This document shows positions 26,246-53,270 of a DNA stretch of 64,000 nucleotides, piece after piece. Every line of letters starts with the position of its first letter. Within the stretch, counting starts at the first letter, position 1. The DNA is taken from positions 1-64,000 of the forward strand of contig JBHIFL010000005.1 in the NCBI GenBank assembly GCA_046761065.1, read 5' to 3'. The position numbers were made by a program, and so were the translations under genes. The notes under the pieces were generated by a model. The model saw only the letters and a program-made list of their open reading frames with translations, made no database searches and was not told the origin of the DNA. The DNA is from Candidatus Heimdallarchaeota archaeon. Lineage in GTDB: Archaea; Asgardarchaeota; Wukongarchaeia; Wukongarchaeales; JBHIFL01.

Positions 26246-26413
26246 TGGTGCGGTCGCCGGGAGTTTCAAAAAGACGCAAATCATCCTTTTTTTGAACCCG
26301 GGTTTCCCGTCGGCACATTCCAACGCACAAATACGAGCTTGGAAGGCTCGAGTCCTTACGGCCGAATCAGCGACCTACGGCCTGACTCGAAGACCTGGCT
26401 AGACAACGACCGC
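26246..26413 (-). tRNA. tRNA-Gly(TCC) with three introns: D-loop (~26357-26390), 45/46 (26304-26331), 59/60 (26263-26290)
   Basis: Acceptor GCGGTCG/CGACCGC + ACCA; anticodon arm CGAGC-CTTCCAA-GCTCG; T arm CCGGG/CCCGG; BHB motifs at 45/46 and 59/60. Confidence 0.88.
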
Positions 26414-32465: not shown

Positions 32466-32724
32466 TGGTGGGGCCGATGGGATTCTCAAAGGGAGAGAAG
32501 CCCTCTCTATTTCTTGAACCCATGACCAGTCCCCGGTTTTCCGTGTCGGAATGACCAGCAGGTTTCTCCGAGGCTCCTTGCTCCAGAAGTTCATCATCTT
32601 CAGGATCGGCAAACCCAACTGTCAATCATCGCGCAAGGAGAGCTTCTGGAGCCTTGCGGGCTGCCATGAGCAAGGAGGGTAGTACATGGCGGCATGCCGT
32701 GCTACCTAGCTACACTACGGCCCC
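32466..32724 (-). tRNA. tRNA-Trp(CCA) with four intervening sequences: 29/30 (32654-32694), 37/38 (32564-32645), a 29-nt insert in the variable loop/T-stem region (within 32522-32558), 59/60 (32483-32512)
   Basis: Removing 41+82+29+30 nt gives a 77-nt cloverleaf: GGGGCCG/CGGCCCC, GTGT/GCAC, GCAGG-CTCCAGA-CCTGC, ATGGG-TTCAAGT-CCCAT, ACCA. Confidence 0.88.
32564..32645 (-). ncRNA. Box C/D guide RNA inside the tRNA-Trp 37/38 intron
   Basis: ATGATTGA (C-like), guide CAGTTGGGTTTG + CCGA (D'), ATGATGA (C'), guide CTTCTGGAGC antisense to the anticodon; box D degenerate. Confidence 0.75.
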
Positions 32725-33018
32725 GAATATCCAAAGGAACCTTTGGCAAATTCCCTATTGGGTATTCCTCGATTGACTTTAAAGAATTTTTGTTTTTCCC
32801 TTCTTGATGGACTATAGTTCTGTAGAGGGAGAACTATATCCAATCCACCGGGTGCATGTCCTTTCGTAAGGAACTTATTATGAAGTAGATTGCTCATCTA
32901 CGCTCCAAGAATCTTACATCTCGACAAACCGCTTCTTGTAGCGAGCTTCCCCCGCTGTTAGCTACCTCTAGAAAATCAGCCATAACACTCTTAATGAAGA
33001 GCCAATCGCGTAAAGGAT

Positions 33019-34554
33019 ATGAAAGATAAGTTTCATCGTGAAGGAGGAGTTGAAGTTTTGAGTGGAATACCGGATGAAAAAAGAACAGCATTAAATTGGA
33101 TCATAGCGAATGAGAAGAGAGTTACAGGTTTGAGCGATACCATTTGGGAGTTCGCCGAGCCAGCCCTGCGGGAGTACAAGTCAGCGAAGGCTCACTGTGA
33201 GTTCCTGCGTGAGCATGGGTTCGAGGTAGAGATGGGCATTTCAGGTATGCCTTCCGCATTTGTAGCCACTTATGGTGAAGGAAAGCCAGTTATTGCAACT
33301 TATGCGGAATATGATGCGACACCTGGAAACTCGCAAAAAGCGGTTCCGTATAAGGAGCCGGTTGTCCCCCATGCACCAGGCTTTGAAGATAAACACAATA
33401 TGCTGGGGGTGGCCGCATCGGCAGCGGCCGTCGCGGCGAAAGTTACTATGGAGGAATTTGGCCTACGAGGGACGATCAAAGTTTTTGGGACACCGGCTGA
33501 GAAGATTTGTATAGGCAAGACGTTTCTCGCGAGAGCTGGGTATTTTGATGACTTGGACGCCGTTGTGGCGACCCATCCCTGGTCGGGGAATACGGTATCC
33601 TGGGAGGATTTACCAGACGCCTACATGGCGGTCGCATTCCGGTTCCATGGGTTACAGGTCTACGGAGGGACGCCGTGGGACGGAAAGAGCGCCTTGGATG
33701 CGATAACCCTGATGAACGTCTTGGCGAACTATATGAAGGAGCATCTAATGAGGCCACCCCACTCCCTCAACGAGATCGTAAGCGTCGGTGGTCAATGCCT
33801 AACCAACCTTCCAGAGTTCACCGAAGTGTTCTACGCCTTCAGAGCGCCAAATGAAGAGGGGGTTAAACGGATTTTAGAGGTTCTAAAGGACTGTGCGGAG
33901 GCGGCGAGCAAGGTAACTGGCTGTTCATATCAATTGCGATACATGGGTGCAAGTCGAACAGGGATACCCAACCTAGTATTATCTCGGCTCGCCTTTAAGA
34001 ACATGGATCTCGTTGGCCCACCGCAATTCACGGAAGAGGAGAAGGAGTTCTGTAGGAAGATCCAAGAGAACATAGGCATGGAGCCCATGGAGGAGCCGCT
34101 GGAGGAGACCCTGATGCCTCCGGAAAAAGGGGCGATGCAGTTTGGGTCTAGAAGGCTAACTTGCGTGACGGGCTGTGACGATTTCAACGAATTCACTTGG
34201 TATGCGCCATCCACATGGGTTCACACCACCCAATGGTTCAGTAGCCCAGCAGATGTTCATCCGCCCAGCTGGTCGATGGCCGCTCTATCAGTGACAGGCG
34301 TCACCCATAAAGGGGGGCTCCTCGCCGCGAAAACAATGGCATTGACCATGGTCGATCTACTAACTACCCCTTCCGTGTTGGAGGAAGCAAAAGCCGAGTT
34401 CGAGGAGCGGTTACGGAAAAGGGGAGGAAGAGAACCCTGCTTGATCCCTCCCGAGGTGAACCCGCCCATCGACCTGGCACTTCCAGAATTCAACGGAACA
34501 GAGACAATAATACGATATCCAACCAGTGGAAAATCCCCTCTGTTCAACGTTTAG
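33019..34554 (+). CDS. M20 amidohydrolase (AbgB-like)
   Basis: EYDA.PG, HN.LG, FGTPAEK, PW.GKSALDA. Confidence 0.88.
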   Translation: MKDKFHREGGVEVLSGIPDEKRTALNWIIANEKRVTGLSDTIWEFAEPALREYKSAKAHCEFLREHGFEVEMGISGMPSAFVATYGEGKPVIATYAEYDATPGNSQKAVPYKEPVVPHAPGFEDKHNMLGVAASAAAVAAKVTMEEFGLRGTIKVFGTPAEKICIGKTFLARAGYFDDLDAVVATHPWSGNTVSWEDLPDAYMAVAFRFHGLQVYGGTPWDGKSALDAITLMNVLANYMKEHLMRPPHSLNEIVSVGGQCLTNLPEFTEVFYAFRAPNEEGVKRILEVLKDCAEAASKVTGCSYQLRYMGASRTGIPNLVLSRLAFKNMDLVGPPQFTEEEKEFCRKIQENIGMEPMEEPLEETLMPPEKGAMQFGSRRLTCVTGCDDFNEFTWYAPSTWVHTTQWFSSPADVHPPSWSMAALSVTGVTHKGGLLAAKTMALTMVDLLTTPSVLEEAKAEFEERLRKRGGREPCLIPPEVNPPIDLALPEFNGTETIIRYPTSGKSPLFNV

Positions 34555-34580
34555 ATTCCCCACTACAAAGCGGATGGTTT

Positions 34581-34865
34581 ATGTGGAGGATTATCGCAAT
34601 ACTCATTGACTGCCACAGCACTAATATGGCCAATGCAGCCGCGTACAGAGCTGAAAGCAGGGAAACCCGTACAGAGCCGCTTATCGGCTATGCAACTGGA
34701 TCGCTTTTTGCCAAGTACCTGAACCCGACACCAGTCGATAAACCGGTAGTTCTGCGAGCACGAGGCAAGGAAATGAAAGATCGAACAATCGCCGTAACCT
34801 GTTCACTCTACTCCCAAGACATGGAGTGTGCCACGGGAAAGGTTATTGCCGTGAGAATAGTATAA
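34581..34865 (+). pseudogene. PaaI/hotdog thioesterase, 5'-truncated
   Basis: IIA.LIDCHS, KYL.PTP..KP..LRAR. Confidence 0.6.
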
Positions 34866-35000
34866 ATTAACAGTTAATAGCAACGAAACCGATTCCTAGA
34901 AATAAAGCTCATTTCAGTTCTTTCGAAATAGGATATTTCTCTAACTGACCTTGTTCCACCCTCCCATAAGGGATTCATGCATGAAACAATATTGTAAAGA

Positions 35001-36065
35001 TTGGGCTTATTTTATAGCAATATGAGAAGTCTAGAGAATTCCAACATTGGAAAAGAGGGATCATCCATTCAAGCCGTGAACACCTTACAAAGCTCATCTC
35101 CCCCAAGCAAGTTGCGAGCACTCCTCAAAAAGCAAAAATACCAACTGTACAGTAAAAGCGTCGCAGTGAAGAAGTGTTTATGGACTCATAAGGCTCTTCG
35201 AGAAGAGGATATGTGCTATAAGGCAACCTATGGGATTCAAAGCCACCGATGCGTCCAAATGACCCCTGTTCCCACGGATTTATGTTCCCATCAGTGCCTT
35301 TACTGCTGGCGGGTTGAACCGAAAGATCTAGGAATCGTACCGTGGAACCCCATGGCGGTGCCTGAAGAGCTCTTTGATACCCCAGAGGTCGTATTTGAAG
35401 GCCTGCTCTGGTGTTGGAAGCGGATTATTTCCGGATACAAGTCATATATTGAAATAAATCGATATCAAGAAGCTGAAAACCCAAAACATGTTGCTTTGAG
35501 CTTGGCAGGAGAACCGACGCTCTACCCTTATCTCGGGGAGCTTCTCAACCTCATCCATACACATGGAATGACGAGTTTTCTTGTGACGAATGGGACCTTT
35601 CCTGAGCGGCTCCAGCAACTTATCGATAAGGAGACGTTTCCCACCCAGCTCTATATCACAATCCCTGCCCCAGATGAATCTACATACCGTCAAACCTGTA
35701 GACCACTGATTCGGGATGGCTGGCAGCGGCTCCAACAAAGCTTAGAGCTTGTTCGTTCGTTAGATTGTCGTACAGTTGCACGGCTGACTCTTGTGAAAGG
35801 GATAAACATGAAAAACCCCCAAGCGTTTGCAAAATTAATAGATTGCATGGATCCAGCTTTTATTGAAGTGAAAGGAGCGGTTCACGTAGGATTTGCACAA
35901 AAACGAATAAAAAAGACAGCGATGCCATATTTTGAAGACATCATTTCCTTTGCGAATGAACTACGTCGCGATCTTGGAGATTATGAGCAAATTAGCCAAA
36001 AAAGAGCGAGTCTAATCTCCATTCTCTCCAATGGAAAGCACCCGGCGCGAATCCCGGGGTTATAA
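35001..36065 (+). CDS. taw1: 4-demethylwyosine synthase Tyw1/Taw1 (radical SAM); start uncertain
   Basis: AVKKCLW, CYK..YGIQSHRCVQMTP, CxxxCxxC, HVALSLAGEP. Confidence 0.93.
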   Translation: MGLFYSNMRSLENSNIGKEGSSIQAVNTLQSSSPPSKLRALLKKQKYQLYSKSVAVKKCLWTHKALREEDMCYKATYGIQSHRCVQMTPVPTDLCSHQCLYCWRVEPKDLGIVPWNPMAVPEELFDTPEVVFEGLLWCWKRIISGYKSYIEINRYQEAENPKHVALSLAGEPTLYPYLGELLNLIHTHGMTSFLVTNGTFPERLQQLIDKETFPTQLYITIPAPDESTYRQTCRPLIRDGWQRLQQSLELVRSLDCRTVARLTLVKGINMKNPQAFAKLIDCMDPAFIEVKGAVHVGFAQKRIKKTAMPYFEDIISFANELRRDLGDYEQISQKRASLISILSNGKHPARIPGL

Positions 36066-36455
36066 CTTCGTGTTAAAATGAAGGAAATCAGCAAGCTTAT
36101 CAGAGACGCGGTTCACTAAGATGTAGAGAAGGCCGGGTTTTGCGGATTTACTTGCAAGAACAGCGATGACTGCTGATGTACCAATTTCCTGCACGACCAA
36201 GTGCCCTTGCTCCCCCTGGACAATGACTGTCTCAAGTAGGCCTTTCTGCAGTTCCTCCATGGCTTTTTCAGACACGTTATTTAATGTAGCTGTGATAGCA
36301 CTAAGAATTGCTGGGTCTATGGTACTAAAAATAGAGGCTATAGGGAGGCCTTCTTTTGTAAGGACAGCGATGCCTTCGATTTCAGGCATTTCAGCCTTGA
36401 GGTCATTTAATTGTTGCTTGATTCGCTCTGTCTCTTCGGCAGACATAAAATGCAT
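36060..36455 (-). CDS. Roadblock/LC7 domain protein
   Basis: IEGIAVLTKEGLPIAS, SAITA, EL.KG.LE..IVQGE.G. Confidence 0.9.
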   Translation of the reverse strand: MHFMSAEETERIKQQLNDLKAEMPEIEGIAVLTKEGLPIASIFSTIDPAILSAITATLNNVSEKAMEELQKGLLETVIVQGEQGHLVVQEIGTSAVIAVLASKSAKPGLLYILVNRVSDKLADFLHFNTKL

Positions 36456-36739
36456 AACAAACTTTACCTCCCAATGGAGGATTCATCGTTCCGAGAGCAT
36501 GAATCTTGGAAGGACACTCCCATAGAGCCTTCTTGCCACATATACCCATCACATATTTTAAGCTCTTCGTTTTATTATTAGCAGCTTGTACCTCTCGACC
36601 CACGGAAGTTGGCGTAAAAAAAAATTTTGCGGTTCCCAGTGAGGCGGTATTCTTTCGAATTATTTATTATAGCTGTAAAAGTTCGTAACTCAAGTCAAAA
36701 ATTCATTTTGGCATACACACAACTGAGGCGATTTATATA

Positions 36740-37378
36740 ATGATCTTTGACAACTTAATGGAGCCGATAAGAGCAGACCTTGAAGAACTTGATCGAGCTC
36801 GTGAAGAAGTCCTACGCTTGACCCGATTAATCATCCGATCTTCTGGTGAAGCCATAAAGGCCATCCATCGAAAAAATTTTCAAGTGGCAGAGGAAAAGCT
36901 TGATGCCGCACGAAAGCAGATGCAAGCGGTTTATAGTATAACAGAGAGACGCGCCGAATTACGTTTTCAGGGCTATGTGACAAGCGCAGCACAGGAATTG
37001 GGTGAAGCTGCCCTTCTTCATGCATATATCTATGAAAAAAGACTCCCATCGGCGTCGGAACTTTCAATTCATTCATACCCCTATCTTATGGCTCTTACGG
37101 ATTTTATTGGCGAGCTTCGGCGATGCATTCTTGATGATTTGAGAAAAAATGAGTTCGATCGAATTGAAATGATTCTAGAGACGATGGACGAATTAATCAC
37201 GGCCCTATTTTCTCTTGATTTTGTTGAGGGACTATTACCTGGGTTCCGAAGAAAAGTGGATTATGGGAGAATACTTGTAGAACGAACCCGAGGGGACGTA
37301 ACGAACGCTCTCCCAAGAGAACAACTCAGGAAAGAACTTCAAAGACTTTCTGATCTGCTCTCAAAACATCACAAATAA
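36740..37378 (+). CDS. Translin family protein (archaeal C3PO-like)
   Basis: DRAREE, QELGEA, YLMALTDFIGELRR, FRRKVD. Confidence 0.9.
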   Translation: MIFDNLMEPIRADLEELDRAREEVLRLTRLIIRSSGEAIKAIHRKNFQVAEEKLDAARKQMQAVYSITERRAELRFQGYVTSAAQELGEAALLHAYIYEKRLPSASELSIHSYPYLMALTDFIGELRRCILDDLRKNEFDRIEMILETMDELITALFSLDFVEGLLPGFRRKVDYGRILVERTRGDVTNALPREQLRKELQRLSDLLSKHHK

Positions 37379-40136: not shown

Positions 40137-40294
40137 GGGCCTGTAAGGGTTCTTATTCGTTAGGGGATGAACTCCAGGAAGCTCAGCTAGGTAGAGCGGC
40201 GGGCTCTTAACTCCTATGGGAGAGACCCGTTGGTCAGGGGTTCAACAAAATCTTAAGAGCTGCTTTGGTTTGGGAAATCCCCTCAGGCCCGCCA
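40137..40294 (+). tRNA. tRNA-Lys(CTT) with three introns: 9/10 (40146-40180), 37/38 (40210-40224), 59/60 (40247-40277)
   Basis: GGGCCTG/CAGGCCC + GCCA; GCTC/GAGC; GCGGG-CTCTTAA-CCCGT; AGGGG/CCCCT; BHB or relaxed BHB at each junction. Confidence 0.9.
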
Positions 40295-44609: not shown

Positions 44610-44744
44610 TGGTGCGGTCGCCGGGAATTTCAGAAGGAACTGCTTTTTCCATTCTTTCGAACCCGGGTTGCCGGCGTTCTTCAGAGACGGGAGCTCCGTT
44701 CTCTCTGGCAGGCCGATGTCCTATCCAGACTAGACTACGACCGC
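44610..44744 (-). tRNA. tRNA-Gly(GCC) with two introns: 37/38 (44677-44705), 59/60 (44627-44655)
   Basis: GCGGTCG/CGACCGC + ACCA; TCGGC-CTGCCAC-GCCGG; CCGGG-TTCGAAT-CCCGG after splicing. Confidence 0.92.
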
Positions 44745-51588: not shown

Positions 51589-51737
51589 TGGTGGGCGGGC
51601 CCGGATTGCCAGAAATTTGCGCAATGCAAACTTCTTTTGAACCGGGGACCTCCTCCGTGTCCCGGGAGAGCATCGTGGATCTGTCACGGTATTTCTCCAG
51701 TCAGGGAGGCGTCATAACCGGGCTAGACCACCCGCCC
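51589..51737 (-). tRNA. tRNA-Val(GAC) with two introns: 36/37 (51659-51699), 59/60 (51606-51635)
   Basis: GGGCGGG/CCCGCCC + ACCA; CCTCC-CTGACAC-GGAGG; CCCGG-TTCAAAT-CCGGG after splicing. Confidence 0.9.
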
Positions 51738-53023: not shown

Positions 53024-53160
53024 TGGTGGACCGGCCGGGATTTTCGGAAGGAAAAATAAAGTCTTTCTTTCACTTGAACCCGGGGCATAAGGCCTTCAAT
53101 CGAGATGAGATGAGGTCTCCTCGGTGCGAGCGAGGCGATCTACCACTGATCTACCGGCCC
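53024..53160 (-). tRNA. tRNA-Ala(CGC) with two introns: 45/46 (53087-53116), 59/60 (53041-53072)
   Basis: GGGCCGG/CCGGTCC (G3:U70) + ACCA; CCTCG-CTCGCAC-CGAGG; BHB-like motifs. Confidence 0.92.
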
Positions 53161-53192: not shown

Positions 53193-53270
53193 TGGTGGGC
53201 CCGCGGGGCTTCGATCCCCGGACCTCACGGTTATCAGCCGTGCGCTCTAACCAAGCTGAGCTACGGGCCC
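53193..53270 (-). tRNA. tRNA-Ile(GAT), intron-less, atypical T-loop ATCGAAG
   Basis: GGGCCCG/CGGGCCC + ACCA; CACGG-CTGATAA-CCGTG; CGGGG/CCCCG. Confidence 0.95.

Follow-up and report, generated by a model that had tools for sequence, protein, structure and literature searches.

The locus examined here raises three questions: whether a tRNA gene that standard programs do not recognise can be the working tRNA-Trp gene of an archaeon, how many introns interrupt it, and whether that number is exceptional. The gene lies in a 64,000-nt stretch of a Candidatus Heimdallarchaeota genome (contig JBHIFL010000005.1, positions 1 to 64,000), which we refer to as the window. We distinguished the following segments of the gene, in the order of transcription:

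32466-32724, minus strand: whole tRNA-Trp(CCA) gene (259 nt), with four introns, five exons and an encoded CCA end
32695-32724, minus strand: exon 1, tRNA positions 1-29, 30 nt including 17a
32654-32694, minus strand: intron 1, 41 nt, position 29/30, relaxed BHB
32646-32653, minus strand: exon 2, positions 30-37, including anticodon CCA
32564-32645, minus strand: intron 2, 82 nt, canonical position 37/38, central helix 4/4, box C/D guide-type intron
32558-32563, minus strand: exon 3, positions 38-43 (with intron 3 at 43/44)
32529-32557, minus strand: intron 3 in its best register, 43/44: 29 nt, relaxed HBh'
32524-32552, minus strand: intron 3 in the alternative register 48/49, mature tRNA unchanged
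32513-32528, minus strand: exon 4, positions 44-59
32483-32512, minus strand: intron 4, 30 nt, position 59/60, full hBHBh'
32466-32482, minus strand: exon 5, positions 60-76, with discriminator A73 and CCA

Excision of 41, 82, 29 and 30 nt from the 259-nt gene leaves a 77-nt RNA with encoded CCA, which ARAGORN calls as tRNA-Trp(CCA). An intron-aware profile scan, trained on 32 intron-less Asgard tRNAs, found the same four inserts with a score of 52.9 and 21 of 21 stem pairs in the spliced product; on the reversed genome no match exceeded 22. The unspliced gene was detected neither by ARAGORN, irrespective of whether introns were allowed, nor by Rfam RF00005, and at a lowered threshold ARAGORN returned noise only. 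An earlier note on this DNA had given the same coordinates, length, insert sizes and 8-nt direct repeat, all of which we reproduced. Its 77-nt cloverleaf after four excisions was likewise obtained when the in-silico spliced sequence was submitted to ARAGORN (tRNA-Trp(cca), 77 nt, 21/21 stem pairs), and its expectation that standard finders miss the gene was borne out by the blindness of ARAGORN and Rfam to the unspliced form.

We then considered whether the locus could be a pseudogene or an assembly artefact, with a working tRNA-Trp encoded elsewhere. The assembly is indeed a draft (4.42 Mb in 234 contigs, 91.5% complete, 8.2% contamination). However, 800 nt at the locus are identical in two further assemblies (Logan SRR29324586 and SRR29324587), which rules out an assembly artefact. 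The check for another tRNA-Trp in the genome that the earlier note had proposed returned none: in the profile scan the locus is the sole candidate with a CCA anticodon, and the reversed control gave none above threshold. Because of the stated completeness and contamination, and because ten expected anticodons were not recovered, a residual chance is left that a second Trp gene is unassembled. The locus is moreover syntenic and conserved in relatives, where the neighbouring roadblock protein is 78-97% identical to that of the window, and the rare exon changes preserve pairing, as in the T-stem, where pair 50-64 is altered on both sides. We therefore regard a pseudogene or artefact as very improbable.

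In the genome-wide census, the profile scan recovered 38 tRNA genes with 77 introns, approximately 2 per gene. Two genes have none, 10 have one, 14 two, 9 three and 3 four, and the most frequent positions are 59/60 (25 introns) and 37/38 (17 introns). These counts are lower bounds, as ten anticodons were missed, including an intron-less Arg(CCG) seen by ARAGORN, and adjacent introns may be merged. Besides tRNA-Trp, the window contains the following tRNA genes:

26249-26413, minus strand: tRNA-Gly(TCC), 3 introns, missed by ARAGORN
40137-40291, plus strand: tRNA-Lys(CTT), 3 introns, one of them at 9/10, missed by ARAGORN
44613-44744, minus strand: tRNA-Gly(GCC), 2 introns, missed by ARAGORN
51592-51737, minus strand: tRNA-Val(GAC), 2 introns, missed by ARAGORN
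53027-53160, minus strand: tRNA-Ala(CGC), 2 introns, missed by ARAGORN
53193-53270: tRNA-Ile(GAT), no intron

Of the three tRNA-Pro genes of this genome (G000; C1:33456-33630, C2:19916-20071 and C28:4174-4400, all on the minus strand), Pro(TGG) has four introns and Pro(GGG) at least four. All three carry an intron at 33/34, and at 17/17a an insert of 16 nt is common to Pro(TGG) and Pro(CGG); such shared inserts may hint at copying between isoacceptors.

The earlier note had described BHB or relaxed BHB motifs at three junctions, and we see them at 29/30, 37/38 and 59/60. Intron 4 forms a full hBHBh' motif and intron 2 an hBH motif. The motif of intron 1 is relaxed and has both outer helices (exon helix of 3 bp, central helix 3/4, long intron stem). 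At the junction of intron 3 the motif is a relaxed HBh' in the 43/44 register and a full motif at 48/49. According to a recent preprint (bioRxiv 10.64898/2026.10.13.758758), relaxed BHB classes frequently arise by chance. The assignment of introns 1 and 3 therefore leans also on conservation, and that of intron 3 in addition on an empty site in a relative (L138).

Relatives were gathered through the syntenic roadblock gene in combination with an intron motif, which gave eight further distinct alleles. Those with a roadblock protein 91-97% identical to that of the window bear the NCBI label Candidatus Hodarchaeota or Heimdallarchaeota. A protein search of genome contigs for relatives found none, and two intron patterns found no tRNA-Trp in two genomes of the same order (G001 and G002, 87 and 92% complete). 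Among the nine genes of the family the mean column identity is 81%, with the changes mostly in introns. Introns 1 and 2 are present in all related alleles. Intron 1 is not found in more distant Asgard Trp genes, e.g. L004, while intron 2 is present in every Trp gene seen, but those genes were found via intron 2. The last base of intron 2 is changed in L138, in agreement with the position 37/38.

Introns 3 and 4 are distributed differently. Both are absent in L138/L139, and intron 4 alone is absent in L098 and L134/L135. In all of these the empty sites correspond to the predicted joined sequence including G59, which fixes the position of intron 4 at 59/60. Judged from these alignments, gain or loss of introns 3 and 4 is still ongoing among close relatives. 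The two genes L134:12104-12345 and L138:12440-12639, neither of which has the 59/60 intron, also have an A50-U64 pair in the T-stem where most others have U50-A64. They have this pair in common despite roadblock identities to the window of 91% (L134) and 97% (L138); the 3' half of the gene may have undergone recombination or conversion.

The clean absence of the 29-nt segment in the close relatives L138/L139 also bears on whether this segment is an intron at all or, with three introns spliced, forms a long variable arm of the mature tRNA. It sits at the variable loop and makes a hairpin, and its splice motif is the weakest, requiring 7 kcal/mol to form. Retention would, however, produce a variable region of 34 nt, which is longer than the arms of class II tRNAs, and tRNA-Trp belongs to class I. 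Within the insert the BHB elements are invariant and the hairpin loop varies, and a similar variable-loop intron occurs in about 9 other tRNAs of this genome. We thus consider retention most improbable, and treat the segment as an intron.

Where intron 3 is cut is less obvious. It is flanked by copies of the 8-nt direct repeat (32558-32551 and 32529-32522), so that every register from 42/43 to 50/51 yields an identical product in the window gene; the ambiguity that the earlier note had pointed out is real. Its preferred register, 50/51, did not hold up: relatives have G or T at position 49 of the 5' copy, and a T would break the T-stem pair 49-65. This excludes both 49/50 and 50/51, and by folding 50/51 is the least accessible of the registers compared. 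Registers 42/43 and 44/45 to 47/48 lack a BHB-like helix. Since L098 and L147-149 have altered positions 47-48 of the 5' repeat copy, this copy is taken as intronic. Cleavage at 43/44 leaves a normal variable loop in every allele. The hairpin that intron 3 forms in this register shows two-sided changes, with a covariation score that was reached by 13 of 500 shuffles. In this register the 3' bulge starts with A, which is also true of 43 of the 49 canonical introns of the genome; the small bonus for A in the scan covered two other bulge positions. An intron at 43/44 is also found in the tRNA-Trp of another Asgard family (L127), where boundaries placed by hand give a 4/4 central helix and an 8-bp intron stem. 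In the window gene itself the motif is relaxed, with three of four central pairs and without an exon helix.

The main competitor is cleavage at 48/49, which would leave the mature tRNA of this genome identical and forms a hBHBh' motif with an exon helix of 6 bp, a central helix of 4/4 and an intron helix of 4 bp. Across relatives its pairs are retained in 97% of cells, and the 5' copy is hypervariable at position 49, which would be expected of a bulge base. On the other hand, this register implies A48 in L098 and A47/A48 in L147-149, with loss of the conserved U47/C48. Its central helix contains two G-U pairs and no two-sided change, its 3' bulge begins with U instead of the usual A, and in the full precursor the 43/44 fold is more accessible by 3 kcal/mol. 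In addition, the fifth introns of relatives described below form a BHB of their own at the 43/44 3' junction. From the alignment and the folding models together, 43/44 is probably the register used, and 48/49 is an unlikely second choice.

The repeat itself is the longest boundary redundancy among the 77 introns, most of which have 0-2 nt, and it is shorter in most relatives. One ACC triplet that can pair with either GGU copy accounts for part of it. Its reading as a target-site duplication is not supported; it could conceivably be the relic of an old tandem duplication.

In several relatives intron 3 is followed directly at its 3' end by an additional segment, which measures 13 nt in L134-137, 16 nt in L147-149 and 29 nt in L142. 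Each of these has its own BHB, in which the GGGG of intron 3 serves as one strand of the central helix, together with a 3-bp outer helix. Across the extra segments this GGGG faces four different partner tetramers. The number of introns in tRNA-Trp thereby varies from two (L138) over three (L098) and four (the window, L132, L134 and L143) to five (L136/137, L142 and L147-149). L134 has four despite its extra intron because it lacks the one at 59/60. The respective genes are:

L136/L137:12098-12369: tRNA-Trp gene with five introns
L142:5028-5320: tRNA-Trp gene with five introns
L147:3076-3351: tRNA-Trp gene with five introns
L134:12104-12345: tRNA-Trp gene with the extra 13-nt intron and without the 59/60 intron

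A different combination occurs in the tRNA-Trp genes L085-L089 (family f7), which have introns at 18/19 and 56/57 plus a long 37/38 intron whose 3' part resembles an added hairpin or a second intron.

A box C/D guide intron in pre-tRNA-Trp has been described in Haloferax volcanii and at least 29 archaea (PMC2584109, PMC4090602). By its sequence, intron 2 is this guide intron. Its elements, and those related to it, are as follows:

32626-32632, minus strand: box C-like heptamer, 6/7 match to RUGAUGA, invariant in the family
32610-32617, minus strand: D' guide, predicted target C39, weak (5 Watson-Crick and 2 wobble pairs)
32606-32609, minus strand: D' box CCGA
32591-32597, minus strand: box C'
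32580-32589, minus strand: D guide, 10 bp with exon 2 and the start of intron 2, predicted target C34, invariant
32575-32578, minus strand: degenerate D box AGGA (GUGA in Freyarchaeia)
32631-32640, minus strand: 5' arm of intron 2, lineage-specific, with the potential to pair with 32574-32583 (end of the guide plus D box)
32668-32677, minus strand: loop segment of intron 1, 10 nt, 3' side, complementary to 32574-32583 of intron 2

The consensus of box C is RUGAUGA. The C' and D' boxes and the 10-bp D guide, which has C34 at its fifth position, are kept in the family and common to Freyarchaeia. The D' guide, whose target we assigned manually with the N+5 rule, is weaker for C39 than its Freyarchaeia counterpart. 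As in Haloferax, the intron is located at 37/38 and has C' and D' boxes, a D guide at the C34 junction and a D' guide at position 39. It differs from the Haloferax intron in its AGGA D box and its degenerate C box, and position 39 is C here and U in Haloferax. The terminal C/D motif consists of the AGGA D box and the C box with its 6 of 7 matches, both of which an 8-10-bp helix can bury. Because this motif is degenerate and can be buried, guide activity is uncertain; intron 2 would direct Cm34, and perhaps Cm39.

Unlike in the known guide intron, the guide end and D box can here be covered by pairing with either of two segments, one in the 5' arm of intron 2 itself and one in the intron 1 loop. 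The 5' arm was not found in the Freyarchaeia-type introns examined, and it has an 8-nt word in common with the loop of intron 1. The complement between this loop and the guide/D-box segment spans 9-10 nt (shuffle p ~0.003, post hoc). The complementary half of the loop is conserved and its 5' half varies at almost every position. Of the changes that do occur in the complement in relatives, one keeps a G-U pair and one loses an end pair, and among the family alleles we found no two-sided change. As the target is in addition conserved for reasons of its own, we propose functional pairing as a hypothesis. We did not find the complement described in the accessible parts of the Asgard tRNA-intron literature (PMC11291895, bioRxiv 10.64898/2026.10.13.758758).

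The genome contains two EndA paralogues (PF01974), as well as genes for RtcB, fibrillarin and Nop. The catalytic paralogue matches Aeropyrum EndA in a full-length alignment that takes in the CSL-like loop and its lysine; the CSL confers cleavage of relaxed motifs. By homology, a broad-specificity EndA and an RNA ligase are encoded. C32-U33 belongs to the motifs of both intron 1 and intron 2, and C39-U41 to those of both intron 2 and intron 3. Motifs with bases in common cannot coexist, and splicing must therefore be stepwise. We calculated the cost of forming each motif by nearest-neighbour folding, in a model without pseudoknots or proteins. In the full precursor the costs for introns 1-4 are 7.9, 2.3, 7.1 and 4.4 kcal/mol, and when all intermediates were folded the bottlenecks over the 24 removal orders ranged from 6.9 to 11.0 kcal/mol. 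With costs of 2-8 kcal/mol and this range of bottlenecks, no single order is forced. The earlier note had held that four introns would require ordered splicing; the motifs are mutually exclusive, yet folding imposes no order. Obligate nesting was not found in the window gene, since by folding energy each motif can form in the full precursor. A strict order is predicted for the five-intron relatives only, and the fifth intron of L134-137, L142 and L147-149 is predicted to be obligately nested. In Haloferax methylation precedes splicing (PMC2584109), and in red-algal pre-tRNAs the anticodon intron is removed last. By analogy, it is plausible that intron 2 is removed last here.

Upstream of the gene we noticed one candidate promoter:

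32777-32792, minus strand: BRE/TATA-like element, TATA-like hexamer at 32778-32783, ~55 nt upstream of G1, similar in relatives

From its sequence and position, this element is a probable promoter of tRNA-Trp. The leader between it and the gene (32725-32775, minus strand) contains a TAGGG motif ~30 nt upstream of G1, which is present in most relatives, and a perfect 7-bp inverted repeat immediately 5' of G1, which is not conserved. The neighbourhood is partly conserved (window 33019-37378, L132-L147) and comprises taw1, which is a wyosine-forming radical SAM gene, roadblock, translin, a CTP-dependent riboflavin kinase and a TP-methylase that is probably diphthine synthase. In distant relatives roadblock is located directly upstream of tRNA-Trp. 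Short taw1 gene calls in relatives were considered as a sign of introns and attributed instead to start-codon calls. C2H2 zinc-finger-like repeat proteins adjoin tRNA-Trp in L133 (8220-9212), L138 (453-1637 and 12897-13721) and L098 (970-1296), not in the window.

Taken together, we are highly confident that the locus is a functional, single-copy tRNA-Trp(CCA) gene with four BHB introns at 29/30, 37/38, 43/44 and 59/60. Its transcript would start from the TATA-like element ~55 nt upstream, an (alpha-beta)2 EndA with a CSL-type catalytic loop would cut the introns one by one, and RtcB would join the exons. The 37/38 intron would be the ancient box C/D guide intron and the other three later gains.

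The earlier note had taken three introns as the maximum for archaeal tRNAs and four as exceptional. Its first statement agrees with reviews on the Thermoproteales, for which a maximum of three per pre-tRNA is given (PMC4390854, PMC6379350, PMC3728597, citing Sugahara 2008 and Tocchini-Valentini 2009), and has been superseded by Asgard data; the second does not stand. Supp. Data 4 of PMC11291895 contains Asgard tRNAs with four observed introns, namely Atabeya-2 tRNA-Trp(CCA) and Freyarchaeia Arg(TCT), Ile2(CAT) and Leu(GAG), and Goswami et al. 2026 (bioRxiv 10.64898/2026.10.13.758758) give 2.2 introns per Asgard tRNA gene with a maximum of five. The four-intron tRNA-Trp is thus an example of a known, already published kind of gene and not a record.

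In its tRNAs this genome resembles the published Asgard genomes in that most genes are interrupted, with about 2 introns per gene, non-canonical positions, BHB motifs, two EndA paralogues, and recent, patchy gains. According to PMC11291895, 92-95% of the tRNA genes in three complete Asgard genomes contain introns. The profile scan found four inserts in the Atabeya-2 Trp locus (L013) too; its extra introns are located in the D-loop, variable region and T-loop, in contrast to 29/30, 37/38, 43/44 and 59/60 here. With the Thermoproteales, as represented in the reviews, the gene has in common several BHB or relaxed BHB introns per precursor and an (alpha-beta)2 EndA with CSL. It differs from them in having four introns, each with a motif able to form independently by folding energy. 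Nested archaeal tRNA introns, whose motif forms only once other introns have been removed, are known (Tocchini-Valentini 2009/Sugahara 2008, as cited in reviews).

We tentatively suggest, as a possibility well short of probable, that intron 1 acts as a switch, its conserved loop pairing with the D box and the end of the guide in intron 2, and that 43/44 is a hotspot for recursive introns. If so, the switch would couple C34 methylation to the order of splicing, and intron 1 would thereby have become fixed in the lineage. At 43/44 a second intron would land on the 3' junction of the first, borrow its helix strands and have to leave first. This would be recursive splicing with a zero-length exon, and close relatives with 2-5 introns would catch the gain in progress. 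In the preprint many Asgard tRNA introns are described as recent gains by a route that is not known, and closely related genomes are named as the way to study how intron DNA arrives, which it regards as the central open problem (bioRxiv 10.64898/2026.10.13.758758). The value of the present locus lies in such a series: among its close relatives this one gene is interrupted by 2, 3, 4 or 5 introns, in a patchy distribution.
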